Source of the DNA: Acetobacteraceae bacterium
GTDB taxonomy: Bacteria; Pseudomonadota; Alphaproteobacteria; Acetobacterales; Acetobacteraceae
DNA: 64,000 bases
Assembly: GCA_037201625.1 (NCBI GenBank)
Contig: JBBCGR010000002.1
Location: 12,831-76,830 of the forward strand
Reading direction: 5' to 3'
This document shows positions 18,103 through 41,662 of the stretch, piece after piece. Positions within the stretch are counted from its first letter, which is position 1. Each line of letters begins with the position of its first letter. Under the pieces are notes generated by a model. It searched no databases, was not told the DNA's origin, and worked only from the letters and a program-made list of their open reading frames with translations. Made by a program: the position numbers and the translations under genes.

Positions 18103-18156
18103 AGCAGGGGAATCATAATCCCTTGGTCGGTGGTTCAAATCCGCCCGCCGCTACCA
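18082..18156 (+). tRNA. tRNA-Met (anticodon CAT; an Ile2 identity via lysidine cannot be excluded)
   Basis: Hand-folded cloverleaf: acceptor GGCGGCG/CGCCGCT, D arm GCTC..GAGC, anticodon stem GGGGA/TCCCT with loop ATCATAA, T arm GGTGG TTCAAAT CCGCC, encoded CCA. Confidence 0.9.
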
Positions 18157-18179: not shown

Positions 18180-19430
18180 CTACGAGGCGCGTTTGGCAGT
18201 TCGCGCTCCCTTGCGTTTGGCAGTCGCCGGTCCTGCTGCGTTCTTGATCGGCAGCACGATCGCCTCTGCGGTGCTCGCTGCCAGGCGTTTCTGATCGGCG
18301 CCTCGCGCGTAGTGGCGAGAGGCGGTGGCCGTCCTGTGGCCCAACAAGGCCTGGATCCCCTGCTCGCTTGCTCCACCGTCAGCCGCCCAGCTCGCCGCTG
18401 CGCCACGCAGGCCGTGCCACACAAGTCCATCGAGGCCGGCTGCTCGGATCGCTTGGCCAGCCGCCTTCTGAAAGGCGTTGGCTATCCACGGCGTCTCGTC
18501 GGGCCTGGTAAGGATGGTGAGCGCGGCGATCGTCGACCCGCCCATCGCCTGCTGACGCGCATCACGACGGCGGTCCAACTCGGCCCGCAAGGCGGGCTGA
18601 CAAGGCACCCAGAGTTTGACCGTGGCATTGCCTTTCAGCTGCACCACGTGGATCCCGGCGCCGTCATAATCGGCCCATCGCATCTTCACCTGATCCTGCC
18701 CGCGCTGGGCCGTCAGGAGCGCCAGCAGCGCGGCGAATCGCCACTCCTCATTGGCCCGCTCGTAGAACTGCGTGAACTCCTCCGGCCGCCACGGCCGGAA
18801 CCCTTCACCTCCCGTTTTCAGTCGCTTCGGGCGCAAGGCAGGATTGTCCGCCCGCCAGCCCAGCGCGTCGACGGCGAAGGTCATCAGGATCGATAGGACC
18901 GTGATCACGCGGTTTGCCTGGCGGCCATTCCACACCCGCTCGGTCGCTCCATCGGCGCCACCGCGCACCGCCACTTCGCGCCAAGCATAGCGGCCCCGGA
19001 TCTGAGCAACATGCTGTCGGCGCAGGCCGTCCACCAGCAGCTTGCCCCAGTCGCGCACCAGCGGCGCCAGGGCCTTCTCATAATCCCGTTTGGTTTCCGG
19101 CGCCTTCTCGGCCCATTCGTCGCTCGCCCGGTACTTCTGGATCAGGTCGGCGATGCTGTGGGGGCGCACAGCTCGGGCAGCCGCCGCATCGGCAGCGGCG
19201 CGTTGTGCTGCCTCATGCGCCTCGTGCGTTCGCTGCCATGCGGAAACGAGGGCCGTTGTGTCGGCAGGATCAACGGGCGTCCCGTCATCGCCCAGCAGCC
19301 GTCGGCGGAACCCGTCGCGCCGGTAGTAGGCGACCATGCGGCCGCGAGCGCGAAACGTCTCCAGGTAGGCCAGCTTCACCGATGCCACATGCGGCATCCC
19401 ACTCTGCGACTGGATCAGGCTCGGGGGCAT
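18180..19430 (-). CDS. int: tyrosine-type phage integrase
   Basis: C-terminal catalytic region HGLRGAAASW...LLGHRTATASRHYAR. N-terminus like MPHVASVKLAYLETFRARGRMVAYYRRDG. Start is 19430 or 19397. Confidence 0.9.
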   Translation of the reverse strand: MPPSLIQSQSGMPHVASVKLAYLETFRARGRMVAYYRRDGFRRRLLGDDGTPVDPADTTALVSAWQRTHEAHEAAQRAAADAAAARAVRPHSIADLIQKYRASDEWAEKAPETKRDYEKALAPLVRDWGKLLVDGLRRQHVAQIRGRYAWREVAVRGGADGATERVWNGRQANRVITVLSILMTFAVDALGWRADNPALRPKRLKTGGEGFRPWRPEEFTQFYERANEEWRFAALLALLTAQRGQDQVKMRWADYDGAGIHVVQLKGNATVKLWVPCQPALRAELDRRRDARQQAMGGSTIAALTILTRPDETPWIANAFQKAAGQAIRAAGLDGLVWHGLRGAAASWAADGGASEQGIQALLGHRTATASRHYARGADQKRLAASTAEAIVLPIKNAAGPATAKRKGARTAKRAS

Positions 19431-19626
19431 GGCCGGCGCCCCCCGCTTCGAACAGGCGGTTGAGATAGTCATCCAGGTTGTCCCGCAGGTAAATGATCCG
19501 GCCAGGCGAGTGGCGACGGGGCGGTGCGACTTCACCCGCCTCAACCTTCGCACGCAGACCCGTCACCGACAGTCCGATATACTCGGCTGCAAGCTCTTCC
19601 CGCATTCCGCGCGGCCAGCCAGGCAT
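19285..19626 (-). CDS. xis: excisionase / AlpA-like helix-turn-helix protein
   Basis: MREELAAEYIGLSVTGLRAKVEAGEVAPP...IIYLRDNLDDYL. The ORF tail overlaps the integrase start by more than 100 nt in another frame. Confidence 0.6.
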   Translation of the reverse strand: MPGWPRGMREELAAEYIGLSVTGLRAKVEAGEVAPPRRHSPGRIIYLRDNLDDYLNRLFEAGGAGHAPEPDPVAEWDAACGIGEAGLPGDVSRSRPHGRLLPARRVPPTAAGR

Positions 19627-19708: not shown

Positions 19709-21322
19709 TCACCCATCGCTCAGCTCCTTCGCCAGCGTCACGACCTGGCCGGCGACGGTGACCAGCCCGTTGTTGCGCAGCACCGCCATACCGCCGTTCC
19801 AGTGCCCGCCCCGCGGCTGCTTGCCGAGGCGGGCGGCCAGCTCCGTGACGGTCATCGATCCGTGCGCCGCCAGCGCCCCGACCATCTGCGGCGCCGGTGC
19901 CGGCAGCCTGGCGCACCACATCGCGCGGATCTCCGCCGGCGACGTCGGCGCCTCACGCACGTCGCCGGCGCGCGCCACCCCCGCGTCCGTCGCCCACACC
20001 AACGAGCCGTCCTCGACCACAAGACCCTCAGCACGGAGCTGCTGCCGTCCTGCGTTGAAGTGGCCGCCGCGTGCCTTCAGCCCGGCCAGCGTGGCCGCCT
20101 GGTTCCAGGTCAGCCGTGCCGGCGTGCGCGATGCCAGCACCGCCAGGAGGGCGCGCGCCGCGGCGTGCAGCGTGGCGTCGGAGCGCGCCGCACCTTGTGG
20201 CCGGGCCCGCCGAGTGGCGCCCGCATCGCTCGCTGGGCGCACCGGACGATGCAGGACCTGCAGCGCAGCCGCGCCACCGGTAGGCGCCGCCTCGACCTGT
20301 GCCAGCAGCGCGCGAAGTCCCTCGGCAGTTGCGGTCTGCATGGCACGCACCTGGTCGCGCAGTCCGGCGAGCTCAGCCGCCGCTTCGGCGCGGCCGCGCT
20401 GATAGCCGCGCTCCTCGGCCGCGGCCAGGTCGTCGGGGTTGCGCTTCGCCGAGGCCGGCTCTGGCCGCCGCTGCCCCGCGAGCAGGGTGGCGATCGCCGA
20501 CACGTCCACCGGCGCCAGGCTTCGGGCCGCGACACGCTGGCCGCGCGTCGGCGTCCTGCTGCTGTCGAACGTTGCGATGCCGGGGAATGCCACTTGCTGC
20601 AGAACGTCGTGGCCAGGCGACCACACCAGGCCGGTCCCCACCTGCAGGCGCGCAAGCTGCGCCAGCATCCGCTTGCCTTCCGCGCGGTCCGCCTGGCCCT
20701 CGATCCAGGCGCCGATCGCATTGCGATCCTGGCTGCTGGTCAGCTTCATCGCGATCAGGGTGTCGGCCTGGCTCAGAACATCCTTGTCGAGCACGGCGGG
20801 CCGCTGCGTGATCAGCCACGGCACGAAGCCGCGCACGCGGCCGCGGCGCACTATCTCGCCGATCTTGCCCTGTAGCGCGGTCTGATCGGGCAGCGGGCGC
20901 TGGGGTGCCCAGAGGTCGGCCTCGTCCAGGATCAGATGCAGGGGCCGCCGGTTGGCGTCGTACAGCGCCTCGGCGAAGGCGGACATGAAGCGCCGCCGCG
21001 CGGCGCCGCTGCCCACTTCGGACACGTCGACGATGCAGCGGAGATCGGAGTCCGCCAGGATGCGCGCCAGCGCGCGGCCGTCCTGGTCGGTGATCGGAAT
21101 GTCGCCGTGCAGGCCGCCGAAGATGGTGACCGGCAGGCCGCCGGCCGGATCGCCATCGGGGCCGGCGCGCAGCCCCCACCAGACGCCGAGCGGGTCGACC
21201 ACGCACACGCGCGCACCGCCGGCGATCAGCGCCTCGGCCATGCCCTTGGCAGCAAAGGTCTTGCCCGAGCCGGTGGTGCCGACGATGGCCAGCCGATCCT
21301 CCAGGATCACGTCGGTGATCAT
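19709..21322 (-). CDS. HerA/FtsK-like P-loop ATPase with two C-terminal winged-helix-like repeats
   Basis: Walker A GTTGSGKT, Walker B LHLILDEADLW, LITQRPAVLDKDVLSQADTLIAMKL. C-terminal repeat pair contains GGHFNAGRQQLRAEGLV and GGHWNGGMAVLRNNGLV. Confidence 0.75.
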   Translation of the reverse strand: MITDVILEDRLAIVGTTGSGKTFAAKGMAEALIAGGARVCVVDPLGVWWGLRAGPDGDPAGGLPVTIFGGLHGDIPITDQDGRALARILADSDLRCIVDVSEVGSGAARRRFMSAFAEALYDANRRPLHLILDEADLWAPQRPLPDQTALQGKIGEIVRRGRVRGFVPWLITQRPAVLDKDVLSQADTLIAMKLTSSQDRNAIGAWIEGQADRAEGKRMLAQLARLQVGTGLVWSPGHDVLQQVAFPGIATFDSSRTPTRGQRVAARSLAPVDVSAIATLLAGQRRPEPASAKRNPDDLAAAEERGYQRGRAEAAAELAGLRDQVRAMQTATAEGLRALLAQVEAAPTGGAAALQVLHRPVRPASDAGATRRARPQGAARSDATLHAAARALLAVLASRTPARLTWNQAATLAGLKARGGHFNAGRQQLRAEGLVVEDGSLVWATDAGVARAGDVREAPTSPAEIRAMWCARLPAPAPQMVGALAAHGSMTVTELAARLGKQPRGGHWNGGMAVLRNNGLVTVAGQVVTLAKELSDG

Positions 21323-21376
21323 GTTCGCCCCGCATCGGCGGCCCGGCCTCGCGGCGGGTGCGACGTCAGCCGATCC

Positions 21377-22129
21377 TCATGCCGCACGTGCCAACCACCC
21401 CGGTTTGCAGCGGCTGCACAGATCGTCCTCGACCCAGCAGCACCCTTCCGGGCAGCCGACCTGGTCGGTGCAGCCACAGGCCCGGCACTGGCGGATCCCG
21501 AGCGAGGCCAGCCGCGGCCGCGGCAGCGGTGCGTCCACCTTCAGCACCCGCTCGCCGATCACCTCGTCGATGATCGCCGCGGTCTCGACATCGGCCGCCA
21601 TGAACCAGGCGGCGTCCACGCGCATCGCGCTCGCGGTGCTCCCATGGCAGCCGATGCGATGAGCGATCGCGCCGGCACCGATCCGCTCCTGCTCTGCCGG
21701 AGCGAGCGCGCGCCAGGCCGCAACGGGATCCAGCCATCCGATGCCCTGCACGTCGCCGGCGGCCTCGCCGCCGATCGCCGCCATTGTGTCGGCCAGGTGC
21801 TTCGCCTGATCGTGGCGGAAGGAGCCCTCCTCGAGTTCGCAGATCGGCACGCGCCCATCCGAGGCTGGATGGCCGCGGCAGGCGAAGCGCAGTGCGGCGC
21901 GGCCGGCGTCCCATTCGCCGGCGCAGCCGTCGCAGAGCACGGCCGACGCGCCCTCGGCCGGCAGGCCGCACGTGAAGCAGCTCCAGCCACGCCCTGGCAT
22001 GGCACACCGCCGCTCGAGCATGACCAGGTTGCGGACACCATCCTCGCGCTCGCAGATGCAGCAGGGTCCGAGTTCCAGCTCGTCGCCATCGTCCCTTATC
22101 GCCATAGGCCGCGGCGGGTTCTCAGGCAT
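21377..22129 (-). CDS. cysteine-rich (putative multi-zinc-binding) phage protein, function unknown
   Basis: N-terminal CCxC...C..CxxC...CxxC and C-terminal CRACGCTDQVGCPEGCCWVEDDLCSRC clusters. Overlaps the upstream gene by 8 nt. Confidence 0.7.
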   Translation of the reverse strand: MPENPPRPMAIRDDGDELELGPCCICEREDGVRNLVMLERRCAMPGRGWSCFTCGLPAEGASAVLCDGCAGEWDAGRAALRFACRGHPASDGRVPICELEEGSFRHDQAKHLADTMAAIGGEAAGDVQGIGWLDPVAAWRALAPAEQERIGAGAIAHRIGCHGSTASAMRVDAAWFMAADVETAAIIDEVIGERVLKVDAPLPRPRLASLGIRQCRACGCTDQVGCPEGCCWVEDDLCSRCKPGWLARAA

Positions 22130-23861
22130 CGGCGTCCTCCATCATCGCAGTGCCGGCCGGCACGCGCGGATGGCGTTTCTGCTCCGGCTTCGGCCCCGGG
22201 GCGCCGAATGTGGTCGGGCGCCAGGCGGGCGCCTTGCCGATCAGCGCCTCGCGCAGTTCGCGCACCTTCTTCGGAGTGCTGACCTCGGCCGCCACGGCGA
22301 TCGCGCGCAGTTCGCTGCTGGACAGCGTCGCCAGCATCTCGGCGCTGTCGAAACGCGGCAGCGCCACGTCGGCGCCGAGGGCGTTGCCGATCCACTCGGC
22401 CACGTCGCCGCTGCCGTGCATGGTCACCGGGTCCTGCACCACGAGCATCCGCGCCAGCGCCTCGGCGAGGATCTCGGCCAGGCTGTCCTCCGGCACCACA
22501 AGGTCGCCGCCGGCATTGACCAGCCGCAGCGCCAGGTCCTGGAAGTCGGTCAGCTCCCACCGCGAGTTGCCGCCCTCCACGCGGACGTTCTTGCCGGCCA
22601 GCGCCAGCACCAGGCAGGCGGCGAGGATCTCGGGCGAGCGCCGCGCGCCCTCCGTGCGCAGATGCCCGCGCAGCGCGCCGGTCTTGGCGGCCGCGATCAG
22701 TTGCAGGCCGCGCTGCGTGATCGGCGACCGCCCGGTTTCAACGTCCGCGGGTTCCGCCTGCTCGGCCTGGTCCGCGGCACCCTCGTCGCCGGCGCTGGTG
22801 GCCGCGCTTCCGGCTCCGGCTGCCGGGCCCGGCGGGCGGGTCGACGCGCCGGTCTGCCGCAGCGCCACCGCCCCCTTACCCTTCGCGGCCTGGCGGGCCT
22901 GCTGCCGCGCAAGGGCGCGCGGCGGGTCCGCGATCGCTTCCTCGATCGCACCGAAGTTGCGGTCGGCCTCGCTCACCGCGACGAACCTGGTTGGTCCCGT
23001 CGGTCCTCGCAGCGCCTTCTTCGACACCGCGTCGAAACGCTGCATCCAGCCGCGCGGCATGGCGATCCGGTGGGCTTGCCACTCGGCCAGCACGATGCGC
23101 TCGCCCTTCGCGCGACCGGCCTCCACACGGGCCTTCAGCGCCGCCTGCTGGGCTTGCAGGAAGCCGTTGGCATCGCGGGTGACGAACTGGTCCGGCGCAC
23201 CCGGTGCGGCGAACAGGTCTTCCTCGAACACGACGCGCGAGGCCTCTACGTCGAAGATGGCGATCCCGCGGGCGATCACCTTCTGCTGGCACGCGTGCGC
23301 GACGATGTGCCAGTTCACCTCCCGCCCCTGGCGCGCGTAGGGAGCCTTCAGCGCCTTCGCCTGCACGTCCTGCGGCGCCGCCGCGATCCGGCGCAGATCC
23401 TGCTGGCTCGGCATCGACGTCTCGACCAGCTTCAGCACCTCGGGATGCAGGCTGGCCAGCCGCTCGACCTGGCGCGTGCCACGCTCGTCGAGACCAAGCG
23501 CCATCGCCGCATCGGCGATGGCCGATCCCGCGTCGAGCAACTGGCGCGCCGCGCGCCATACGTCGATCGGATGCAGTGCGGCGCGCTGCATGTTCTCGAT
23601 CACCTGCGCCTCGATCGCCTCCTCGTCGGTGAGCGCGCGAATCTCGGCCTCGATCTCGCTGAGGCCGGCGCGGCGCGCGGCGCGAACGCGCCGGCGGCCG
23701 AGCACGATGCCGTAGCGGTTGCCCTCGGGACGGACGGTGATCGCCTGCAGCACGCCGCGCGCGGCGATGCTGCGCTCGAGCGCGGTATCGGCCGCCGCGG
23801 ATGGCAGGATCCTGCGAATGTCGGGAATGCTCTCGTCGAGCAGCTCGAGCGCCAGCTTCAT
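22122..23861 (-). CDS. large ParB/Srx N-terminal-domain protein
   Basis: ParB-N block LERSIAARGVLQAITVRPEGNRYGIVLGRRRVRAARRAGL..IEA. ~450-aa extension with a low-complexity linker. ATGA coupling to the upstream ORF at 23858-23861. Confidence 0.8.
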   Translation of the reverse strand: MKLALELLDESIPDIRRILPSAAADTALERSIAARGVLQAITVRPEGNRYGIVLGRRRVRAARRAGLSEIEAEIRALTDEEAIEAQVIENMQRAALHPIDVWRAARQLLDAGSAIADAAMALGLDERGTRQVERLASLHPEVLKLVETSMPSQQDLRRIAAAPQDVQAKALKAPYARQGREVNWHIVAHACQQKVIARGIAIFDVEASRVVFEEDLFAAPGAPDQFVTRDANGFLQAQQAALKARVEAGRAKGERIVLAEWQAHRIAMPRGWMQRFDAVSKKALRGPTGPTRFVAVSEADRNFGAIEEAIADPPRALARQQARQAAKGKGAVALRQTGASTRPPGPAAGAGSAATSAGDEGAADQAEQAEPADVETGRSPITQRGLQLIAAAKTGALRGHLRTEGARRSPEILAACLVLALAGKNVRVEGGNSRWELTDFQDLALRLVNAGGDLVVPEDSLAEILAEALARMLVVQDPVTMHGSGDVAEWIGNALGADVALPRFDSAEMLATLSSSELRAIAVAAEVSTPKKVRELREALIGKAPAWRPTTFGAPGPKPEQKRHPRVPAGTAMMEDADA

Positions 23862-24271
23862 GGCAGCGCCCTCCTGCTGCCGCGCAACGCCGGCGTGATG
23901 CGCAGCCAACCCAGGCACCGCCGCCAGGCGGGCATCGGCTGTCGTCCGCTGCAGCCGGCTTCATGTTCCAGCAACTGCTCCTCCCAGCGAAGCATTGCGA
24001 TGGCGACGCAATGGAGCGCCGCCCGGCATTGCGGATCGATGGTGGCCCATGCCGGGTCGTCGACCACCGCCTGCGACAGCGCGCGCGCTACGCCGCCGAC
24101 CTGCTGCGGCAGCGGAAGGGATGTCGCCATGGCCGCCGCCAGCAGCGGATCCATCGGCATGCGGTCGGCATACTCGGTCAGGGCGGAGAACGCGTTGCGA
24201 TACAGGCCGGCCTGCGGGTCGAGGCGGACGACATTGGCGGCGAGACGCGCCGCGGCGGTTGCGTTGTTCAT
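23858..24271 (-). CDS. hypothetical phage early protein
   Basis: 137-aa ORF with 4-nt overlaps to both neighbours in the leftward operon. Confidence 0.6.
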   Translation of the reverse strand: MNNATAAARLAANVVRLDPQAGLYRNAFSALTEYADRMPMDPLLAAAMATSLPLPQQVGGVARALSQAVVDDPAWATIDPQCRAALHCVAIAMLRWEEQLLEHEAGCSGRQPMPAWRRCLGWLRITPALRGSRRALP

Positions 24272-31691: not shown

Positions 31692-33245
31692 ATGAGCGGC
31701 GTAGGGCGCCCACGCGGCAGGACGCAGGAAACGCTCAACCAGTCCTCGCTCTGCCAGCTGCTGCGCGACGTCGGCACGCCGCCGGCGATGATCGCCGCGA
31801 AGCTGAACCTCTCGACGGCGCGGGTCTACGAGCTGCTCAAGCTGCCCAGCGGCGAGCCGGAGGAAGGACCCGATCCGGCTCTGCGATCCGAACCGGAGAG
31901 CGAGCGCCCGGCGCGGCTGTCGGCCCGGACGCTATTCAACCGCGCATGCCTGGCGATGAACGAGGTGAACGGGGACGCCAGGCTCCGCGGCCTGGATCGT
32001 GAGCACCGGCGGCTTTGGCTCGAGATCGTCCAGGCGATCGGCCAGCTCGGCGACGGCGTGCGTCTGCAGCTTGAGCCAAGCGGCTTCTCCGATCGCGCCG
32101 ACCTGGCGGCCACGTATGGCGGATCGGAGGACGAGCTCGGCCGGCTATGTGCGCGGCGGCTGCTCATCGATGAGGGCGATGCCATCGCGCTCCCCGGCGG
32201 CCTCGGCCTGATGCGAGAGCGGCCGAACCGCCGGCGGGTGCCGCGGGCCCGTGGGGAGAGGCGGCCCGGTCCGTGGCAGCACCACATGCCGTACGTGATC
32301 CCCGGCGGCCTTGGAGATTCGAGGAAAATAGGGATTTCACCAGAATCGGTTTCTGGAGAAATGGCTATTTCACCAGAATCGGGTTCTGATGAAATCGGGG
32401 TTTTCCTGGAATCGGACGGTCTCGCGTGCGTTGCTGCTGCTGCTGCTGATAGTGAAAAAAATCAATCATTTAGCAGCAGCAGCAGCTCTGGTAGCCGCGC
32501 GCGGGATTCCAGCGAAACCCCACCCGATTCTGGAGAAATTGCCGCCACTGATTCCACAGATATTACATCGAAACGATCGGACGAGCCCCAGGCCGTCCTG
32601 GCGGCCGAGCTGACGACCGCGGCCAAGCTGGGCCGGGGGCCTCTGCCCTGGGAGCTCGACACGGTCCGCGGCTGGCTGGCAGCCGGCGCGTCGGCCGACA
32701 CCGTGCGCGCCGTGGTCGCCAGCAAGATGCGTACGGCTGGCAAGCGCCATGCCGCGCCGCCTGGCACGCTGGCCTATTTCGACAAGGCCATCCGGGAGTC
32801 GCTCGATGCCGGGCTGCGGCCGGCTTCGGTGACGGGCACGGTGCCGATGTCCGACGCGCCACCACGACAATCGAACCCGGCCTGGCCCGACGAGGCCGCC
32901 TGGCGAGCCCGCCACGTTGCGTTGTCCCGGGCGGCGGAGGGGGCGTTCAACGGCTGGCGCTACATCCCGGGCTGGGACGAGTACGCGGCCATCGTCCGGG
33001 ATCCGGCGCACGCCGAGGATGCGCTGCTGTGGGGTGAGGTGTTCCTGCTGTGGCGGCGTCACAACCGCCGCGACGTGCCGCTGATGAAGGATTTTCTGGC
33101 AGCCGTCGCCGGCCCGTCAGGCGGCGAACAGGCCAGAGACTGGGCGCGGGGCTACGTCGCCGCGCACGCCGGCAGCGGCGAGGTGAGAGAGGGCTGGCGC
33201 GACTTTCTGGCGGACGTCGACCAGGTTGGGGGTCAGGCCCGATGA
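31692..33245 (+). CDS. putative replication initiator/organiser (lambda O-like layout with internal origin)
   Basis: N-terminal HTH (PAMIAAKLNLSTARVYELL). The central low-complexity segment is encoded by the iteron/AT-rich DNA. Sits at the end of the early-right operon next to the DnaA-IV protein. Confidence 0.6.
   Translation: MSGVGRPRGRTQETLNQSSLCQLLRDVGTPPAMIAAKLNLSTARVYELLKLPSGEPEEGPDPALRSEPESERPARLSARTLFNRACLAMNEVNGDARLRGLDREHRRLWLEIVQAIGQLGDGVRLQLEPSGFSDRADLAATYGGSEDELGRLCARRLLIDEGDAIALPGGLGLMRERPNRRRVPRARGERRPGPWQHHMPYVIPGGLGDSRKIGISPESVSGEMAISPESGSDEIGVFLESDGLACVAAAAADSEKNQSFSSSSSSGSRARDSSETPPDSGEIAATDSTDITSKRSDEPQAVLAAELTTAAKLGRGPLPWELDTVRGWLAAGASADTVRAVVASKMRTAGKRHAAPPGTLAYFDKAIRESLDAGLRPASVTGTVPMSDAPPRQSNPAWPDEAAWRARHVALSRAAEGAFNGWRYIPGWDEYAAIVRDPAHAEDALLWGEVFLLWRRHNRRDVPLMKDFLAAVAGPSGGEQARDWARGYVAAHAGSGEVREGWRDFLADVDQVGGQAR
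32334..32539. repeat. candidate phage replication origin: iterons plus AT-rich palindrome
   Basis: ATTTCACCAGAATCGG at 32334 and 32367, GTTTTCCTGGAATCGG at 32400 (33-bp phasing), and an inverted copy CCGATTCTGGAGAAAT at 32524. (GCT)5 at 32433-32447 and (AGC)5 at 32472-32486 flank a 24-nt AT-rich core. Confidence 0.6.
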
Positions 33246-34368: not shown

Positions 34369-34644
34369 GCGCCGAGTGTAAAATTGCGCGGCGTCAAAGC
34401 GCGAGCGACTTTCGCGTGTGGAGAGCGCTCGTACTGAACTTGGGACTCAGTCAGCGAAGGACCATCCGGGTCCCCAAGCAGAGGCACGCACGGATATCAC
34501 GATGGCCAGGAAACTGCCCGCCGGCGGGGCGGTTGCGCTTTCTGGTCGCCGGAGTTGTTGGGAGGCGCATCAGCGCGCGCTTCGCGCTGAGCATTGTTGA
34601 AGGTCGCCGCGACGATGAAAATCCGAGTGCCGTAGTCGGAATTG

Positions 34645-34675
34645 TTGACGCGGGACAATCTTCCGGAAATAAAAT
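34645..34675 (+). promoter_or_regulatory. sigma70-like promoter upstream of the DUF6362-like gene
   Basis: TTGACG (34645-34650), 17-19 nt spacer, then AATAAAAT. The spacer contains CGGGACAAT, the same 9-mer as in the repeat array at 36095. Confidence 0.4.
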
Positions 34676-34705
34676 CGCGCTCCCGTGATCAAAATCGGAG
34701 TGAGG

Positions 34706-35293
34706 ATGCGCGACCGGGCGGCAGAGGTCGACGCGGCTTATGTGCTGCGGCGACTGGACGAGGCGGGCAAGACGCTGATGGCATTGCCTGGTCGCGGCGT
34801 TTTTCCGACGGGCTTCCGATCAAGCATGCCGGACTACCTCCATCTGCCGGATGAAGATTTCTGGCATGCCGGCGTCAATCCGCACCTCTCGGCGACGCAG
34901 GCGGAACACCAGAGGCCGGCCCCACCAAGCCGTGCGGCGGTGAGCGCCATGGACGAGGTCTATTTCCGGTGGATGCCGCTCCTGCCGTCCGACACCGAGA
35001 TGGCGCTCCGGAAGCGACGCCTTCTCCTGCTGCGTTCGCTGGTGTGGCCGGGTTCCGGCTGGGACGACCCGCATGTCTGGTCCTGGCGCCGGCTCGGCGA
35101 GCACTTCCGGATTGACCACAAGACTGCGCAGACGTGGCACGCGCGAGTGGTCGACCAGCTGGCGTCACGGCTGCGCCGCATGCCGGACCCCTGTGCGGCG
35201 ACCCTCGCGCGGATCACCGCGCATCGAGGTCGATCGGCCGGCCGCGATCACGAAATTCCCCACTTGCAAAATCGATTCCCCACGCCCGCCTGA
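34706..35293 (+). CDS. DUF6362-like phage protein (possible HTH/late regulator)
   Basis: VLRRLDEAGKTLMALP...PPSRAAVSAMDEVYFRWMPLL...WRRLGEHFRIDHKTAQTWHARVVDQLASRL resembles DUF6362 proteins as I remember them. ATG 34706 follows GGAGTGAGG. Confidence 0.55.
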   Translation: MRDRAAEVDAAYVLRRLDEAGKTLMALPGRGVFPTGFRSSMPDYLHLPDEDFWHAGVNPHLSATQAEHQRPAPPSRAAVSAMDEVYFRWMPLLPSDTEMALRKRRLLLLRSLVWPGSGWDDPHVWSWRRLGEHFRIDHKTAQTWHARVVDQLASRLRRMPDPCAATLARITAHRGRSAGRDHEIPHLQNRFPTPA

Positions 35294-35413: not shown

Positions 35414-35788
35414 ATGGCCATTCTGCGCGGCAGCGTCGCACGGCGTGGCCGTCACGCGTGGCTGGTGTGGGACACGACGTGCGCTGATACGGTCGTCGCA
35501 TTCCCGATCCGCCCGCCCCCGCGTTACCGGCGTCGTCATCTCGTCCCGCTGCTGTCGCCAGCCGATCGCCTGCTCTCATGCTGCACCGACGAGGCTCTGA
35601 TCCAGCTCTACCGGCCGGCGCGGCTGAACCGCGAGGGGCTGCAACATTCCGGCGAGATCTCGGGCGCGGTGCAGTGCGCGGTCGTCCAGAGCCTGGTCCG
35701 CCTCCATATCGAGCAGCGGACGGCGGAGCGCTGGACGGCCGACCGCGTCCACCGCCGGCGCGCCGCTGAGGAGAGCTACATCCTGTGA
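35414..35788 (+). CDS. hypothetical phage protein
   Basis: 124-aa ORF with a GAGGA RBS. Two small hairpins (GCGAGGCG/CGCCTCGC and GCCTCC/GGAGGC) precede it. Confidence 0.5.
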   Translation: MAILRGSVARRGRHAWLVWDTTCADTVVAFPIRPPPRYRRRHLVPLLSPADRLLSCCTDEALIQLYRPARLNREGLQHSGEISGAVQCAVVQSLVRLHIEQRTAERWTADRVHRRRAAEESYIL

Positions 35789-36060
35789 AACGGATCCCTC
35801 GCCCCATCCTCGTGCTGCCCAGCGAGCCGGCGCCGATCAATGCGCTCAGCCTCGACGAGGCGGTTCAGATCACGCTCGCCACCGGTACCGCCCGGCGTTC
35901 GGGCGGCGAATATCTCGCCACCGAGGCTCCTGTGGCGGCGCGCGTCGACCGCACGCTGCTCGCCTTTCGCCTGGCGGGCGAGTGGAACTGCATCTGCGTG
36001 CACATCGCCGAGCGCATCGCCTTTCTGGCGAAGCACGCCGGTCGCCGCTGCCCGGTCTGA
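35785..36060 (+). CDS. hypothetical phage protein
   Basis: GTG start overlapping the previous stop (GTGA). 91 aa. Confidence 0.5.
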   Translation: MKRIPRPILVLPSEPAPINALSLDEAVQITLATGTARRSGGEYLATEAPVAARVDRTLLAFRLAGEWNCICVHIAERIAFLAKHAGRRCPV

Positions 36061-36071
36061 GGCGCGCTACG

Positions 36072-36174
36072 CCGGGACATAACCCGCCGCGCGGCGGGAC
36101 AATAACAGCCAGGCTGGGCGCACCGGATGCGACATAACCCGTCAGAGCCGGGACATAATGACTATTATGTCCCG
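36072..36174. repeat. helically phased GACA(A)TAA repeat array ending in a perfect palindrome
   Basis: CCGGGACATAAC 36072-36083, CGGGACAATAAC 36095-36106, TGCGACATAAC 36128-36138, and palindrome CGGGACATAAT-GACT-ATTATGTCCCG 36149-36174. Core spacings are 22, 33 and 21 bp. TATTAT lies inside the palindrome, and the ATG is 6 nt downstream. Confidence 0.85.
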
Positions 36175-36179
36175 CCCCA

Positions 36180-37049
36180 ATGACAGCGGAAGATCTGTCT
36201 TCTCAAAGGGATAGCGTCGGCGCTGTGGGTGACGAGATGGTCGTGCGCATGTGGCTGCACGGCAGGAGCGCCAACACCATCGCCGCATATCGGCGCGACG
36301 TGACGCGGTTCTTCGCCAGCGCGGGCAGGCCCCTGATGCAGATCCAGCTCGCCGATCTGCAGGCCTTCGCGGCCTCGATGCCGGAAGTGGCGCCGGCGAC
36401 GCGCGCCCGCTGCCTCGCCGCGGTGAAGTCGCTACTGAGCTTCGCCCGCCGCATGGGCTACCTGACGGAGGATGTCGGCGCGGCGCTGCGACTGGAGAAG
36501 CCTGGCGCGCCGCCGGTCGAGCGCATTCTCGCCGAAGCCGAGGTCAGCCGGATGATCGGCGCGGCGCCGAACCCGCGCGAGCGCACGGTGCTGCGGCTGC
36601 TCTATGGTTGCGGCCTTCGGGCATCCGAGGCCGCCGCGCTGCGACGTCGAGACCTGACCGCACACCGCCGCGGCGGCGAGGCGCGGATCCTGGGCAAGGG
36701 CAGCAAGCTGCGCGTGGTGGAGATCCCGCCGACGCTGTGGCGCGAGCTGCAGGAGCTGCAGAGTTCGCCGGCTCCGGATGCGCCGGTGATCATCGGCGCC
36801 GACGGCCGGGCACTCACGCGCAAGGGGATCTATCGGATCGTGCGTCGTGCTGCCCGCCGCGCGGGATTGGCACAGGCGGTGTCGCCGCACTGGCTGCGGC
36901 ACAGTCACGCCAGCCACGCTCTGGATCACGGCGCGCCATTGCCAGCCGTGCAGCAGGATCTCGGCCATTCGTCGCTGACGACGACGTCGCGCTATCTGCA
37001 CAAGCGAGCTGGCGACAGCTCGTCGAAATACGTACCGGGCATGAACTGA
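36180..37049 (+). CDS. XerC/XerD-like tyrosine recombinase (second recombinase of the prophage)
   Basis: 289 aa. N-terminal SAM-like core-binding domain (TIAAYRRDVTRFF). Catalytic R (GLRASE), HWLRHSHAS, LGHSSLTTTSRYLH (Tyr). No arm-binding N-domain. Confidence 0.85.
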   Translation: MTAEDLSSQRDSVGAVGDEMVVRMWLHGRSANTIAAYRRDVTRFFASAGRPLMQIQLADLQAFAASMPEVAPATRARCLAAVKSLLSFARRMGYLTEDVGAALRLEKPGAPPVERILAEAEVSRMIGAAPNPRERTVLRLLYGCGLRASEAAALRRRDLTAHRRGGEARILGKGSKLRVVEIPPTLWRELQELQSSPAPDAPVIIGADGRALTRKGIYRIVRRAARRAGLAQAVSPHWLRHSHASHALDHGAPLPAVQQDLGHSSLTTTSRYLHKRAGDSSSKYVPGMN

Positions 37050-37057
37050 GGCAATCC

Positions 37058-37699
37058 GTGGACTCTCCGCAGTCACCGACGCAGCCTGGCCACGATGTGC
37101 CGGCCGGCTTCATGCAGGACGCGCAAGGGCGGCTGGTGCCGTTGGCCCTGGTGAAGGCCGAGCACAAGCTCGAGGACCAGCTCGTGCGAGACCTGTACGC
37201 GGGTGCGTTGCAGCAGTCCGCCGCGCTGAGGGATTTCCGGGGGAAGGCAGCGGCAGAGATTGCGGCGTTCCTGTCCCTGCTGGCGGACCAGTATGGCGCG
37301 CCCCGCGGCGGTGCCAAAGGCAATCTCACGCTCAGCAGCTACGACGGGACATTGCGGATTCAGCTCGCCATCGGTGATCAGCTGGCGTTCGGCCCCGAGC
37401 TGCAGGTGGCAAAGACGCTGGTGGATGACTGCATCCGGGCCTGGTCGGAGGGTGCGGACGAGAAGCTGCTGGCGATCGTCAACGACGCGTTCGCGGTGGA
37501 CAAGCAGGGCAAGCTGAACGTCGACAGAATTCTCGCGCTGCGGCGCCTCGCGATCGATGACGAGGCGTGGCAGCACGCGATGTCCGCGATCAGCGACGCG
37601 ATCCGCGTGGTGCGATCGAAGGAATACCTGCGCTTCTACCAGCGGGCGAAGCCCGACGAGAAGTTTCAGCAGGTGCCGCTGGATCTGGCGTCGGTGTGA
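37058..37699 (+). CDS. DUF3164 family phage protein
   Basis: C-terminal half of ORF 36251..37699: PAGFMQDAQGRLVPLALVKAEHKLEDQLV...GGAKGNLTLSSYDG...VPLDLASV. GTG 37058 follows GAGG. Confidence 0.7.
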   Translation: MDSPQSPTQPGHDVPAGFMQDAQGRLVPLALVKAEHKLEDQLVRDLYAGALQQSAALRDFRGKAAAEIAAFLSLLADQYGAPRGGAKGNLTLSSYDGTLRIQLAIGDQLAFGPELQVAKTLVDDCIRAWSEGADEKLLAIVNDAFAVDKQGKLNVDRILALRRLAIDDEAWQHAMSAISDAIRVVRSKEYLRFYQRAKPDEKFQQVPLDLASV

Positions 37700-38001
37700 T
37701 GCCCGGCGACCCGTTCTACCGCTCGCCGGCCTGGCGCCGGTGCCGCAAGGCGTTCGTCGCCGCGCATCCGGTCTGCGACGTGCCCGGCTGCGGCCAGCCG
37801 ACGACCGACGTCGACCACCGTCAGGCGATCGCCGCCGGTGGCGCGCCGTTCGCCTGGTCGAACCTGCGCGGCCTCTGCCACGCGCACCACAGCCAGAAGA
37901 CGGCGCGGCAGGATCGGCCGAGCTATCGGCGGTCCGACCGGCCCCTCACGGTCCGTGGGACCGATGCCGACGGCTGGCCGCTGGACCCCGGGCACCGCTG
38001 A
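37699..38001 (+). CDS. HNH endonuclease (packaging-associated)
   Basis: CxxxxC...DVDHRQAIAAGG...SNLRGLCHAHHSQKT. ATGA coupling. Sits immediately upstream of the terminase genes. Confidence 0.85.
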   Translation: MPGDPFYRSPAWRRCRKAFVAAHPVCDVPGCGQPTTDVDHRQAIAAGGAPFAWSNLRGLCHAHHSQKTARQDRPSYRRSDRPLTVRGTDADGWPLDPGHR

Positions 38002-38099: not shown

Positions 38100-38492
38100 A
38101 TGCCTGCTCCGAGGACGCCGCGTGCGAAGGCCAAGGTTGCCGGCAGCGATGTGAAGAACCCGCAGCGGTACCGGGCGCGCAAGGATCCAGCGGCCGCACC
38201 GCTGGGCAGTCCGCCGACCTGGATGGATGAGTTGCAGGGCCGGGTCTGGCGCACCTTCGCCGGCGAACTGCCGTGGCTGAACCGCTCTCACAGGGCGTTG
38301 CTGGAGATCGCGGTGACCGTGCGGACCCGTCTGATGGCGGGCGACGAGGTGCCGGGCGTCCAGGCGCTCAACCTGCTGCGGCAATGCCTCGGCCAGATGG
38401 GTGCCACGCCGGCCGACGCGACCAAGGTGCAGGTGCCGGATGACGGCGAGGAAGACCCGGACGAGGCGCTCTTCCGGCCGCCCGTCCACTGA
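38100..38492 (+). CDS. terS: terminase small subunit (P27-family-like)
   Basis: 130 aa. Position before TerL. Block W..F..ELPWL...H.ALLEIAV..R. Confidence 0.65.
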   Translation: MPAPRTPRAKAKVAGSDVKNPQRYRARKDPAAAPLGSPPTWMDELQGRVWRTFAGELPWLNRSHRALLEIAVTVRTRLMAGDEVPGVQALNLLRQCLGQMGATPADATKVQVPDDGEEDPDEALFRPPVH

Positions 38493-40332
38493 TCGCGCCA
38501 CAGCCTACGCCGAGGCGGTGATCGCCGGCGCGATCGTCGCCGGCCCGCATGTCAGGAACGCCTGCCGCCGGCACATGCAGGACCTGGCCGTCGGCCACCT
38601 GCGCGGGTTGCGCTATGACGTCGCCGCGGCCGAGCACGTCTGGACCTTCTTCGAGCGCGCCTTCCGGCTGTCGGAGGGGCAGTTCGAGGGCAAGCCCTTC
38701 GCGCTCCACCCGTCCCAGGCTTTCATCCTGGGGATGATCTTCGGCTGGAAGCGCGCCGACGGCATGCGGCGCTTCCGTCGGGCGTACATCGAGCAGGGGA
38801 AGGGCAACGGCAAGTCGCCGCTCGCCGGCGGCATCGGCATCTACGGCATGATGGCCGACGGCGAGGCCGGCGCGCAGATCTATGCCGCGGGCGCGCGGAA
38901 GGAACAGGCGGGCATCCTGTTCCAGGACGCCTGCAAGATGATCCGCAAGTCGCCGCTGCTCAGCAGGCGGCTGCGGTTCAGCGGTGGATTGGGCCGCGAG
39001 TTCAACGTCGCGCATCATCGATCCGGGTCGTTCTTCCGGCCGATCTCGCGGGAGGCCGGCAAGACCGGGTCCGGGCCACGGCCGCACTTCGCGCTGTGCG
39101 ACGAGGTGCACGAGCACCCCAACCGCTCGGTGATCGAGATTCTGGAGCGCGGGTTCAAGTTCCGCCGCCAGCCGCTGCTGCTGATGATCACCAACAGCGG
39201 GTCGGACCGGAAGTCGCTGTGCCGCGAGGAACATGAGCACGCGGTGAAGGTCGCGGCCGGCACGCGGACACCGGATGACGCCGCCACCTATGTGGGCGAG
39301 GTCATCGACGACGACACGTTCGCCTATGTCTGCGCCCTCGATCCCGGCGACGATCCGCTCGAGGACCCGAGTTGCTGGCCGAAGGCCAACCCGCTGCTCG
39401 GCGTGACGGTGCAGCACGACTACCTGGCGGGTGTGGTGCGCCAGGCCAAAGACTTGCCGGGCGCGCTCAACGGCATCCTGCGGCTGCATTTCTGCGTCTG
39501 GACGGACGCCGACCGGGCGTGGATGAGCCGCGCCACGCTGGAGGCAGTGCTGGCGGACTTCGATCCGGCCGAGCATGCCGGGCGCGAGGTCAGGCTGGGC
39601 ATCGACCTCTCGGCGACCCAGGACCTGACCGCCATGGGCGCCGTGGTGCGCACGGGAACGGTGTCCGTTGCGCGCGAGGACGGCGCGACGGTGGAACTGC
39701 CGACCTATGACGCCTGGGTCGAGGCATGGACGCCTGGCGACACGCTGGTGGAGCGGGCGGTACGCGACAACGCACCATATGGCGTGTGGGCCAAGGATGG
39801 CTGGCTGAACGCGCCACCTGGCAAGACGATCCGCATGGACTTCATGGCGGCCCGCGTGGCGGAGCTGCAGGCGATCTACCGCGTGACGATGCTGGCGTAC
39901 GACGCCTATGCGTTCCGCAAGCACTTCGAGCCGCAGCTCGACGAGGCGGGGGTGACGATCCCGCTGGTTGAGCATCCGCAGGGCGGCAAGCGGCGCGCGA
40001 CGCCGAGCGAGGCGCAGATTGCCGCCGCCGAGGCCGAAGGCTCCAAGGCCGAGGGGCTTTGGATGCCGGGCTCGGTGCGCGAGCTGGAGACGCTGATCCT
40101 CGAGCGTCGCATCCGCATCCGGCGCAGTCCGGTGGTTGTCTCGGCGATGATGTCGGCGGTGACGGAATCCGACCCGTTCGACAACCGATGGTTCTCGAAA
40201 GCCAAGGCGGTGAACCGCATCGACCCGCTGGTCGCGTTGACGATCGGCGTAGGCGCCACGCTCGCGGATGTCGGACAGGAGGTCCGCTCGCCCTGGGAAG
40301 ACCCGGGCTTCCGGCTGGGCAGCAAGGGGTAA
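38440..40332 (+). CDS. terL: terminase large subunit
   Basis: Walker A-like EQGKGNGKS, then HFALCDEVHEH and LLMITNSG blocks, and a C-terminal nuclease domain. ATG 38440 is the only start before the conserved N-terminus (the track start at 38401 is GTG). Confidence 0.9.
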   Translation: MTARKTRTRRSSGRPSTDRATAYAEAVIAGAIVAGPHVRNACRRHMQDLAVGHLRGLRYDVAAAEHVWTFFERAFRLSEGQFEGKPFALHPSQAFILGMIFGWKRADGMRRFRRAYIEQGKGNGKSPLAGGIGIYGMMADGEAGAQIYAAGARKEQAGILFQDACKMIRKSPLLSRRLRFSGGLGREFNVAHHRSGSFFRPISREAGKTGSGPRPHFALCDEVHEHPNRSVIEILERGFKFRRQPLLLMITNSGSDRKSLCREEHEHAVKVAAGTRTPDDAATYVGEVIDDDTFAYVCALDPGDDPLEDPSCWPKANPLLGVTVQHDYLAGVVRQAKDLPGALNGILRLHFCVWTDADRAWMSRATLEAVLADFDPAEHAGREVRLGIDLSATQDLTAMGAVVRTGTVSVAREDGATVELPTYDAWVEAWTPGDTLVERAVRDNAPYGVWAKDGWLNAPPGKTIRMDFMAARVAELQAIYRVTMLAYDAYAFRKHFEPQLDEAGVTIPLVEHPQGGKRRATPSEAQIAAAEAEGSKAEGLWMPGSVRELETLILERRIRIRRSPVVVSAMMSAVTESDPFDNRWFSKAKAVNRIDPLVALTIGVGATLADVGQEVRSPWEDPGFRLGSKG

Positions 40333-40336
40333 GCGG

Positions 40337-41662
40337 ATGTGGCCGTTCCGGCGAAGCCAGCGCACGCTCGAGCGGGAGCTGGGCCGCATCCTGCTGGACC
40401 GTGCGGAGGCTCGCTCCTCGCCGGAGGACCCGCGGATCCCTCTGTCCAGTCCGGAGGCGTTCTCTGCGCTGTTCGGCAGCTGGCGAAGCGCCGCCGGCGT
40501 CGAGGTCACGCCGGAACGGGCGCTGGGCGTGCCGGCCGTGTGGTGCGCGGTGAACTTCATCGCGGGCACGATCGCGTCGCTGCCGCTGATCACCTACACG
40601 CGGGACGCGGAGGGCAACCGTCGGCGCGCCGATGGCGATCCGATCTACTGGCTGCTGCATGACGAGGTGAACGCCGAGCTGCAGACCTCGTTTGCCTGGC
40701 GTAAATACTCGATGGTCAACACGCTGCTGCGCGGCCGGTCGGTGAGCTTCATCGAGCGCAACCGGATCGGGCGGCCGACGAATCTCTGGCCGCTGAACCC
40801 ACTCGCCACCACTGTGGAGCGCGTCGGTGGCCGGAAGCAGTACCGGTACCGCGACGGCGCGGCGGAGCACGTCTACGCCGCCAGCGAGGTCATCGACATC
40901 CCCTTCATGCTGTGCGTCGACGGCATCAGCGCCGAAGCGCCGACCAGCAGGCTGCGGAACTCGCTCGGGCTGGCGATCGCCATCGAGGACTATGCCGCGA
41001 CCTTCTTCCGCGGCGGCGGTGTGCCGCCGCTGGCGATGCAGATGCCGGACAAGGCTTCACCGGCAGCCGGCACGCGTGCCGCCGCCAACATCGATGAGCT
41101 GATCCGCGATGCGCGGAGCGACGGCAGGCTGGTCCTGCCGCTTCCGACGGGACATCGGCTGGAGCAGATCGGCTTCAACCCGGAGGCCGGCCAGCTGGTC
41201 GAGGCGCGGCGGCTGCAGGTGGAAGAGATCGCTCGGATGTTCATGCTCCCGCCGATCTTCCTGCAGGAGCTGACCCGGGCGAATTTCGCCAACTCGGAGC
41301 AGCAGGACCTGCACTTCGTCAAGCACACGCTGACGCAGTGGCTGGAATGCTGGGAGCAGGAGCTGAACGCCAAGCTGTTCGGCCCGCGCAGCCGGAACTT
41401 CGTCGAGTTCAACGTCGACGGGCTGCTGCGGGGCGACTTCGCGACGCGCATGGCCGGCTACGCCACGGGCATCCAGAACGCGATCATCACGCCGGACGAG
41501 GCGCGCGACAGCGAGAACCGGCCGCGGATGGGCGGCGAGGCGGCGAAGCTGCACGTCCAGGGTGCGACCGTGCCGCTCGGCGAGCAGACCCGCGCGGTCG
41601 GCACCCCGTCCAATGCGCCGATCCACCCGCCCGCACAGCCGGCGAAGGCAAGCGACAAATGA
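40337..41662 (+). CDS. portal protein (HK97 family)
   Basis: MWPFRR... ALGVPAVWCAVNFIAGTIASLPL is typical of HK97-type portals. Order is terL-portal-protease-capsid. Confidence 0.9.
   Translation: MWPFRRSQRTLERELGRILLDRAEARSSPEDPRIPLSSPEAFSALFGSWRSAAGVEVTPERALGVPAVWCAVNFIAGTIASLPLITYTRDAEGNRRRADGDPIYWLLHDEVNAELQTSFAWRKYSMVNTLLRGRSVSFIERNRIGRPTNLWPLNPLATTVERVGGRKQYRYRDGAAEHVYAASEVIDIPFMLCVDGISAEAPTSRLRNSLGLAIAIEDYAATFFRGGGVPPLAMQMPDKASPAAGTRAAANIDELIRDARSDGRLVLPLPTGHRLEQIGFNPEAGQLVEARRLQVEEIARMFMLPPIFLQELTRANFANSEQQDLHFVKHTLTQWLECWEQELNAKLFGPRSRNFVEFNVDGLLRGDFATRMAGYATGIQNAIITPDEARDSENRPRMGGEAAKLHVQGATVPLGEQTRAVGTPSNAPIHPPAQPAKASDK

Follow-up and report, generated by a model that had tools for sequence, protein, structure and literature searches.

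TnpI, the recombinase of the transposon Tn4430, is a protein of 284 aa, and its site, the IRS, is located upstream of the tnpI gene. The IRS is 116 bp long and contains two symmetrical inverted motifs around a 4-bp spacer, cleaved with a 6-bp stagger, together with two direct accessory motifs on one side; all of the motifs share 9 bp and each is bound by TnpI (PMC2847244). Catalysis does not require the accessory motifs; their role is to make the reaction selective for resolution, by way of a defined synapse, and to set the order in which strands are exchanged (PMC2847244). Here, we describe a locus of related anatomy in a prophage of an Acetobacteraceae bacterium, found in a 64-kb stretch of contig JBBCGR010000002.1 that was analyzed as a whole and that we refer to as the window. 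A gene for a 289-aa Xer-like recombinase (positions 36180-37049) is directly preceded by a 101-bp array of short repeats that ends in a palindrome (36074-36174). We consider it probable, though well short of certain, that array and gene together constitute a self-contained multimer-resolution module.

Other described systems share parts of this layout. In dif-type sites, two half-sites flank a 6-bp central region where strands are exchanged, an 11-6-11 arrangement also found in the XerA site, and in the XerS system the gene stands next to its site, the two making up a single module (PMC5357621). The cer and psi sites combine a dif-like core with approximately 150 to 200 bp of one-sided accessory DNA and obtain resolution selectivity by a topological filter (PMC5357621). 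They differ from the locus described here in using two host recombinases and unrelated accessory proteins (ArgR, PepA, ArcA).

An inner ATAA-N6-TTAT is typical of dif sites. Phage P1 encodes Cre, whose loxP site lies beside the cre gene near packaging functions; the pair resolves prophage dimers and can cyclize phage DNA. In integrons, attI consists of a simple site with extra direct-repeat sites for the same recombinase, beside its gene. A second recombinase is already known from many temperate phages of Acetobacteraceae and their relatives, where annotations name it “integrase” or “XerC/D”. We found no earlier description of this recombinase-site module in the literature searched.

RESULTS

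A repeat array and a palindrome directly precede the recombinase gene

A gap of 119 bp (36061-36179) separates a 91-codon open reading frame (ORF) (35785-36060) from the 289-codon ORF of the recombinase. The heptamer GACATAA occurs four times in this gap, at 36076, 36131, and 36152 on the plus strand and at 36165 on the minus strand, and nowhere else on either strand of the window. The expected count is 0.92, and 1 of 100 shuffles of the window reached four. All four copies fall within 96 bp (36076-36171), and the chance of such tight clustering of random hits is about 1e-8. The last direct copy and the inverted copy form a perfect palindrome, CGGGACATAAT/GACT/ATTATGTCCCG, at 36149-36174. It can also be read as 9-bp arms around a 6-bp center, GGGACATAA-TGACTA-TTATGTCCC, and in this 9+6+9 form it is best read as a putative dif/lox-type core (Table 1). 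Judging from the relatives described below, 9+6+9 is the conserved unit; the 11+4+11 palindrome put forward earlier is perfect in the window and peculiar to it. We placed the predicted crossover region of this core according to the 11-6-11 anatomy of dif (PMC5357621) and the 6-bp stagger of TnpI (PMC2847244).

An earlier reading of this DNA (the original prediction) had located the GACATAA array, the palindrome, its motif spacings of 22, 33, and 21 bp, and a TATTAT, which lies at 36163-36168, and its coordinates and spacings are all correct. The palindrome does end just before the recombinase ATG, at a distance of 5 nt instead of the 6 nt given before. The motifs had also been assigned to the same face of the helix. 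Counted from the core left arm, the accessory sites of the window lie 2.0, 5.05 to 5.14, and 7.24 helical turns away, and that of a sister clade lies 3.05 turns away; the phasing is real but approximate.

TABLE 1 Proposed recombination module and neighboring features in the window
Feature	Position	Strand	Remarks
Accessory site I	36074..36082	+	GGGACATAA, then CCC; 76 bp 5' of core left arm
Accessory site II	36096..36105	+	GGGACAATAA, 10-nt variant with one extra A; 54 bp 5' of core left arm
Accessory site III	36129..36137	+	GCGACATAA, then CCC; 21 bp 5' of core left arm
Core left arm	36150..36158	+	GGGACATAA; predicted recombinase-binding half-site
Central (crossover) region	36159..36164	.	TGACTA, 6 bp; predicted cleavage points on either side
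Core right arm	36165..36173	-	TTATGTCCC (= GGGACATAA on minus strand)
Xer-like simple tyrosine recombinase, 289 aa	36180..37049	+	Pfam, PHROGs integrase, catalytic residues, NCBIfam and PDB placement
DUF3164 protein, conserved downstream neighbor	37058..37699	+	PF11363, 4.6e-74
HNH endonuclease	37567-38001	+	
TerS	38100-38492	+	
TerL	38401-40332	+	
Portal	40268-41662	+	
Two small ORFs upstream of array		+	
phrog_6836 match	34685-35293	+	Function unknown
Weak replication-initiator match	31692-33245	+	
tRNA-Met	18082-18156		
Canonical tRNA-adjacent integrase	18180-19553	-	PF00589, 2.6e-10

The gene encodes an arm-less, Xer-like tyrosine recombinase

Two Pfam domains were matched in the 289-aa protein, PF00589 (Phage_integrase, 6e-28, residues 117-276) and PF02899 (SAM-like N-domain, 9e-9, residues 28-91), and the same scan returned no arm-binding domain. 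Only about 20 variable residues precede a conserved DEM...WLHGR motif, which places the protein in the “simple” (arm-less) class. In an alignment of 29 family members, the residues that define the tyrosine recombinase superfamily (R147, K173, H237, R240, H263, and Y272) are invariant. This invariance means that catalysis is under selection. The original prediction of an Xer-like recombinase with a full catalytic set and no arm-binding domain is thus borne out by the Pfam matches and the invariant residues. We reject a protelomerase, given the size of the protein and because these two domains are the only ones matched in Pfam.

In a search of the PDB, XerD (1a0p) was the best match (2e-42, aligned residues 22-275), followed by XerA and XerC; the match to XerH (5jjv) was restricted to the catalytic domain, and Cre was absent among the matches at 1e-5. 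Scores against the curated NCBIfam models fell far below every cut-off, namely, 154 bits versus 335 for XerC (TIGR02224), 149 versus 330 for XerD (TIGR02225), 43 versus 267 for XerS (NF003462), 152 versus 220 for XerA (NF040815), and 103 versus 265 (TIGR02249) and 55 versus 435 (NF011946) for integron integrases. These comparisons place the recombinase in the Xer clade, yet with such scores it is not an orthologue of XerC, XerD, XerS, XerA, or the integron integrases.

The ATG at 36180 is supported by an N-terminal SQ..S.GAV.DEM that is kept in the closest relatives (71 to 73% identity). The NCBI model of this protein, from a metagenome-assembled genome of the Acetobacteraceae, has 266 aa instead of 289, and its start seems to have been annotated too short. 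In the Komagataeibacter phage phiKM1, the deposited start of the “integrase” (locus L001, position 5971; region 5935-5971; protein P0121) lies 36 nt downstream of an ATG conserved with the Acetobacter phage phiAP1. From the conserved ATG both proteins begin with MVSGDR, and the deposited phiKM1 start likewise seems too short.

The core is conserved upstream of related recombinase genes

The window recombinase has thousands of relatives. Isolated phages are represented by phiKM1 (53% identity) and phiAP1 (50%), in which the recombinase gene occupies the same place, a few genes upstream of terminase. The phiKM1 core reads GGGACATAA-CTGTAG-TTATGCCCC, with a direct copy 31 bp upstream, and the phiAP1 core reads GCAAGATAA-GTGTAG-TTATCTTGC, with a direct copy 32 bp upstream and, farther up, an inverted one. 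We collected 160 further loci from viral and metagenome collections, anchored them on conserved residue 18, and scanned 330 bp upstream of the gene in 147 related loci, phiAP1 and phiKM1 among them. An unbiased search for dyads with a 6-bp spacer recovered 9/9 dyads in 38 of the 147 loci, compared with 6 of 756 control segments drawn from these loci, and nearly all of these dyads were of the form NNNNNATAA-N6-TTATNNNNN. When this core was sought directly at a threshold of at least 11/13, it was present in 93 of 147 loci (at least 63%) and in 7 of 1,560 controls (0.4%); the former count is a lower bound, as several apparent misses contain the array with imperfect dyads. Conservation next to orthologous recombinases was the point on which the original prediction had staked itself beforehand, and it holds in at least these 93 loci.

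Across 62 distinct cores, the arm consensus is G-N-N-A-S-A-T-A-A, and 19 of the cores are perfect dyads. The center is palindromic in none of the 62 and has a G at its end in 45, which gives the core a polarity relative to the accessory side. The outer arm bases vary by lineage (GGGAC, GCAAG, GTCAG, GACCG, CGCAC, and others), with changes in one arm matched in the other.

Directly downstream of the recombinase gene, 62 loci encode a DUF3164 protein on the same strand, at a median gap of about 200 bp. Of 61 loci that have DUF3164 and whose downstream sequence is long enough, 57 contain the core, and 25 core-bearing loci are without DUF3164; our search found no solved structures of DUF3164 relatives. 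The strand is shared without exception by the downstream genes for DUF3164 (62/62), HNH (23/23), TerL (13/13), and portal (39/39). The upstream ORFs are not conserved among loci, leaving the recombinase as the sole constant companion of the site. This constancy is partly by construction, the loci having been collected via the recombinase; the covariation and plasmid evidence presented below are independent of how they were collected.

The window contains one such site. In approximately 1 Mb of flanking sequence from the 93 loci, we found four exact copies of the 9-mer arm elsewhere but no second core or other second conserved site. With a single site per genome region, the recombination partner would have to be a second copy of the genome or a foreign site. 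An inversion or shufflon-type switch and the excision of an internal segment are excluded on the same ground. A search of viral contigs for lone cores (pattern GGGACATAAN6TTATGT) yielded 53 hits, of which 3 were genuine and located on known or related contigs; the remainder were chance occurrences in AT-rich DNA, one of them an ordinary terminator hairpin. The phiAP1 site had no blastn match among plasmids.

At locus L084 (5900-5990; metagenome contig Ga0302320_10006663), which encodes a 59%-identical recombinase, the right arm TTATGTAGC and the downstream sequence are kept as in L085, and the left arm and the entire accessory array are replaced by unrelated DNA, with the breakpoint at the core edge. 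Upstream of the breakpoint are BREX genes (PglZ, BrxL), another tyrosine recombinase gene, and an IS91-family transposase gene. We considered L084 as a recombination junction and rejected it, as the adjacent IS91-family element explains the breakpoint better.

Accessory sites have a fixed geometry and covary with the core

Accessory copies of the arm occur at lineage-specific positions. Loci of the window clade have direct copies 21 and 76 bp upstream of the core left arm, plus the copy at -54, whereas the Acetobacteraceae clade (about 50 loci, including phiAP1 and phiKM1) has a direct copy at -32 or, in the phiKM1 type, -31, and in most loci a further inverted copy 75 bp upstream of the right arm. 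When 14 window-clade loci (53 to 64% protein identity) were aligned on the core center, sites I to III and the core fell into register with zero indels over about 115 bp. The site I copy at -76 is present in all 14, as well as in two more loci in our table of arms. The extra base of site II (xxxxxAATAA) is found in 14 of 14 aligned and 15 of 16 tabulated loci regardless of arm sequence; in L012, for example, the site reads GACCGAATAA. In the sixteenth tabulated locus, L034, sites I and II are out of register. Site II is thus a fixed variant of the half-site that should shift or bend the subunit bound to it.

The accessory copies follow changes in the arms. All sites in L012 read GACCG or GTCCG followed by ATAA, and all in L008 read GCGAC or GGGAC followed by ATAA. 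Accessory sites match their own core at 3.52 of 5 variable positions on average, compared with 2.86 +/- 0.16 when loci are permuted, and 1 of 5,000 permutations reaches the observed value; the loci in this test are mutually related, and we consider it conservative. From the constant association of site and gene, this covariation, the plasmid copies, and the Xer-type half-site, we infer with considerable confidence that the recombinase is the protein that binds both the core and the accessory sites.

Related modules occur on plasmids

Relatives of the recombinase at 42 to 49% identity are encoded on plasmids of Methylobacterium, Methylorubrum, and many cyanobacteria, where they adjoin parA/RHH and toxin-antitoxin genes. 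Such a neighborhood is the usual address of multimer-resolution functions. The module takes a simpler form on plasmids: of the four copies scanned, three have a dyad core 26 to 28 bp upstream of the gene, reading GCAAGACAA-GAATCG-TTATCTTGC in pCMU02, and the core-bearing plasmid relatives have no phage genes nearby.

Two plasmids of Methylobacterium deserve separate mention. In pNYY1_2 (L221:18508-19935), IS5- and IS110-family insertions lie between the parA-RHH operon and the recombinase gene and no core is recognizable; it was probably destroyed. We considered pNYY1_2 as a phage-plasmid and rejected this, since it is an ordinary plasmid. The 17.7-kb pNYY1_7 (L165) carries parA/RHH, a RelE/ParE toxin gene, and the recombinase gene with its core; its phage genes are few (HK97 prohead protease, small terminase, and tail assembly). 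It has the look of a former phage now maintained as a plasmid, or of a satellite-like element.

The region upstream of the gene resembles a protein-binding site

In neither the window nor the two isolated phages did the array contain a predicted sigma-70-type promoter, a weak negative because the prediction relies on the Escherichia coli consensus. The original prediction had taken TATTAT for a -10 element of an almost leaderless transcript. This proposal fares poorly, as no such promoter was predicted and the leaders of relatives are 26 to 45 nt long, some with a clear Shine-Dalgarno sequence (GGAGG); the near-leaderless layout is specific to the window. No terminator was predicted between the upstream genes and the module in the window, and there is no T-run at the palindrome. 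If transcribed from upstream, the palindrome could form an RNA hairpin of -22.7 kcal/mol (z = -3.75) that ends 5 nt before the AUG. Nevertheless, the pattern of conservation is that expected of a protein-binding site and not of an RNA, since the inner sequence does not vary, the direct copies have no means of pairing, and imperfect dyads are common.

In phiKM1, we observed a weak terminator-like hairpin with a T-run (L001:5889-5912; CCGTTTTTCGACGG TCGTTTTCGG), the sole terminator-like find in our scans of the window, phiAP1, and phiKM1. It overlaps the outer end of the core right arm and extends toward the recombinase start codon.

The module lies well inside the prophage, apart from its integrase

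Features surrounding the module are listed in Table 1. As stated in the original prediction, a separate integrase gene adjoins a tRNA gene, which is tRNA-Met. No att (attachment) repeat of the tRNA-Met end is present inside the 64-kb window, and so the right end of the prophage lies outside it and the array is well inside the phage. The recombinase studied here is therefore prophage-internal, situated between replication and terminase genes with a site of its own next to it. In the window, and likewise in all of the isolate-derived prophage contigs that we examined, the site is unbroken and its flanks are conserved on either side. The label “DUF6362-like”, earlier given to the ORF at 34685-35293, was not reproduced by Pfam, and the ORF matched only phrog_6836.

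Beside the tRNA-adjacent integrase gene, a minus-strand trio at 19709-23918 encodes a P-loop ATPase (weak TerL/FtsK-like match), an unknown 250-aa protein, and a 597-aa ParB-like protein (phrog_6218, 7.5e-21). The trio could be a module of cargo, defense-like, or partition-like type.

DISCUSSION

Comparison with described systems

The closest parallel to the window locus in site anatomy is the TnpI/IRS system of Tn4430. Both have an arm-less recombinase of similar size and a site of similar length (about 116 bp versus 101 bp), and in both an inverted core is joined by direct accessory motifs of the same sequence, on one side and next to the gene; the window core can be read as 11+4+11 or as 9+6+9. 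The differences are also clear. The module described here is carried by temperate tailed phages or plasmids instead of a Tn3-family transposon, and no Tn3-family transposase was found among the annotated neighbors or in Pfam and PHROGs scans of the neighbors in the window. Where Tn4430 has DR1 and DR2, the window has three accessory repeats, one with a fixed one-base insertion, and the sister clade has a direct and an inverted copy. Moreover, the motif is dif-like (ATAA-N6-TTAT) and the protein scores best against XerD, XerC, and XerA. We would file the system provisionally as a Xer-like simple recombinase with a TnpI/IRS-like site, res-like yet outside the Tn3-family systems.

The remaining systems resemble it less completely. 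Like XerS/difSL, XerH/difH, and XerA/dif, it appears to employ a single Xer-type recombinase on a roughly palindromic site, and the gene stands beside that dif-like site (5 nt away in the window, with a core in 93 of 147 loci). Those systems, however, resolve chromosome dimers near the terminus, depend on FtsK in the cases of XerS and XerH, and are without accessory direct repeats. XerC/XerD pair a chromosomal housekeeping gene with dif at the terminus, a partner recombinase, and FtsK, whereas the window gene is prophage-borne. With cer and psi the locus shares a dif-like core and one-sided accessory DNA; here, the repetition of the core motif points to the recombinase as its own accessory protein. 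In Cre/loxP, too, a phage encodes a simple tyrosine recombinase together with an inverted-repeat site of its own adjoining the gene, but loxP consists of a 13-8-13 core and lacks accessory sites, no close sequence relationship was detected, and P1 is a plasmid prophage without an integrase, whereas the window phage integrates at a tRNA gene. Integron integrases show some sequence similarity (103 bits); the window has no attC partners or cassettes, and orientation and context differ. Finally, lambda-type integrases share the tyrosine recombinase fold and chemistry and are encoded by temperate phages, but the window recombinase has no arm-binding domain, its accessory sites repeat the sequence of the core arm, and its site is unsplit inside the prophage.

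A probable module for resolving joined copies of circular DNA

We propose that the module most likely serves to untangle joined copies of circular DNA and that it may also repress its own gene. Two recombinase monomers would bind the inverted arms GGGACATAA and TTATGTCCC and exchange strands across TGACTA, and further monomers would occupy accessory sites I to III, the direct repeats to one side of the core. Given two whole sites in direct repeat on one molecule, as in tandem prophages or when circular phage genomes are joined into a dimer or multimer, the accessory-bound subunits would help to build a defined synapse that favors deletion, converting multimers to monomers. Occupancy of the core beside the start of the gene would probably damp expression of the recombinase and perhaps that of co-oriented downstream genes. 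Integration would be left to the tRNA-adjacent integrase, from which the module would be separate. For phiAP1, attP and the att-adjacent integrase suffice for a vector to integrate at tRNA-Ser (PMC8566455), and the internal homologue in that phage, PhiAP1_290, is distinct from this integrase.

Resolution of multimers or tandem copies ranks first in our view, given that relatives occur on plasmids and that the direct accessory repeats are confined to one side. This is the part of the original prediction that has gained most, a lox/dif-like core with accessory sites for multimer resolution being supported by conservation and covariation; the plasmid-like phase of the phage that it also envisaged is not.

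Several points weigh against our proposal. The phage has a canonical integrase and is integrated, and its need for multimer resolution is not obvious. Accessory sites as such are no proof of resolution selectivity, since those of lambda attP and integron attI can favor intermolecular reactions. About one third of the 147 loci have no recognizable core, and some cores have been disrupted (L084, pNYY1_2). The recombinase gene heads a co-oriented block that continues into the HNH, terminase, and portal genes, which hints at late expression and fits poorly with plasmid maintenance. With no promoter predicted in or near the array, autoregulation is a conjecture. More generally, the binding of protein to site, the position of the crossover, the directionality or resolution selectivity of the reaction, its biological role, and autoregulation are all deduced from sequence.

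Alternative functions

The main rival is a role linked to packaging, which we regard as unlikely: the module would be expressed with the late genes and act on replicating phage DNA to prepare packaging substrates, turning monomer circles into two-cos dimers or concatemers into monomer circles, or cyclizing injected DNA as Cre/loxP can. Phage copies of the gene invariably point in the same direction as the packaging genes and lie a few genes upstream of them, and no predicted terminator separates the module from the genes before it. There are also precedents in that P1 cre-loxP adjoins pac and that dimers made by Int can rescue lambda packaging. The plasmid relatives argue otherwise, as they have the core and zero packaging genes, and the HNH and terminase set points to cos ends, which would cyclize without a recombinase. 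In the sole dissected analogue, furthermore, one-sided direct accessory repeats favor resolution over fusion (PMC2847244). It is, to the same low degree, conceivable that many alphaproteobacterial temperate phages use the module not for routine dimer resolution but to process their DNA late and in step with packaging, a Xer-like enzyme, scaffolded by its accessory-bound subunits and possibly assisted by DUF3164, turning replicated DNA into a substrate for the terminase. If true, this would be an undescribed role of site-specific recombination in tailed-phage morphogenesis, and the module would also be a compact, self-directing recombination tool.

Less likely still is a transcription switch, in which the array is an operator and the recombinase-like protein chiefly represses or activates its own gene and the late operon. 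The core does abut the start of the gene, at 5 nt in the window, 26 to 45 nt in relatives, and 26 to 28 nt on plasmids, and Tn3 resolvases and the TnpI of Tn5401 repress promoters within their res sites. Such a protein would not be expected to keep six catalytic residues invariant, and no promoter-like element was predicted. The original prediction had offered, as one of two hypotheses, an activator or operator array for the late operon, pointing to the recurrence of the 9-mer CGGGACAAT, here placed at 34651, in the spacer of a promoter-like element (region 34620-34700, TTGACG...CGGGACAATCTTCC). This copy is incomplete, since CGGGACAATCTTCC lacks the ATAA half, and it is near chance expectation (0.34 copies expected; two or more in 6 of 100 shuffles). 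GACATAA has no other copy in the 64 kb, relatives have no second conserved site in the flanks of the 93 loci, and neither the second site nor the late-operon array is supported. Regulation is likely a side function of the module rather than its main one.

We find it improbable, more so than either of the preceding possibilities, that the core is a second attP used for alternative integration into a dif-like or secondary site on a chromosome or plasmid, whether by the phage enzyme or, in the manner of integrative mobile elements exploiting Xer (IMEX), by host XerCD. The dif-like ATAA-N6-TTAT core and the Xer-like recombinase would suit such a role, arm-less simple integrases such as Brujita Int exist, and L084 retains the right arm only, beside foreign DNA. 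The prophages nevertheless have an intact site with its flanks and so are elements integrated elsewhere, and no lone core was found on plasmids or in the scan of viral contigs. The L084 junction lies beside an IS91-family transposase gene, the simpler explanation. Arm sequences also vary widely among phages, unlike what mimicry of a conserved host dif would entail, and we reject host-dif mimicry.

Finally, we give very little credence to the idea that this is no recombination site at all but a set of origin iterons or an RNA hairpin controlling termination or translation, for although the direct repeats at 21- to 33-bp spacing are iteron-like and a stable hairpin could form just before the AUG, the inner ATAA/TTAT is kept as sequence beyond what pairing needs, direct copies are unable to pair, perfect dyads make up only 19 of the 62 distinct cores, T-run and terminator are both lacking, and the element accompanies the recombinase on plasmids and phages alike despite unrelated upstream and replication genes.

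Significance

These findings set apart, in many temperate phages, a module that is distinct from the integration enzyme and has its own conserved, structured 100-bp site; the host phages include those of industrial vinegar bacteria. For phiAP1, a cured host and an infection assay exist, so the role of the module is directly testable (PMC8566455). For annotation, the internal recombinase gene is unsuitable for inferring att sites or the ends of prophages. If the accessory repeats impose direction as they do in TnpI/IRS, these phages and plasmids would hold dozens of natural enzyme-site pairs with different arm specificities, and such pairs could serve as orthogonal, excision-biased recombination tools.

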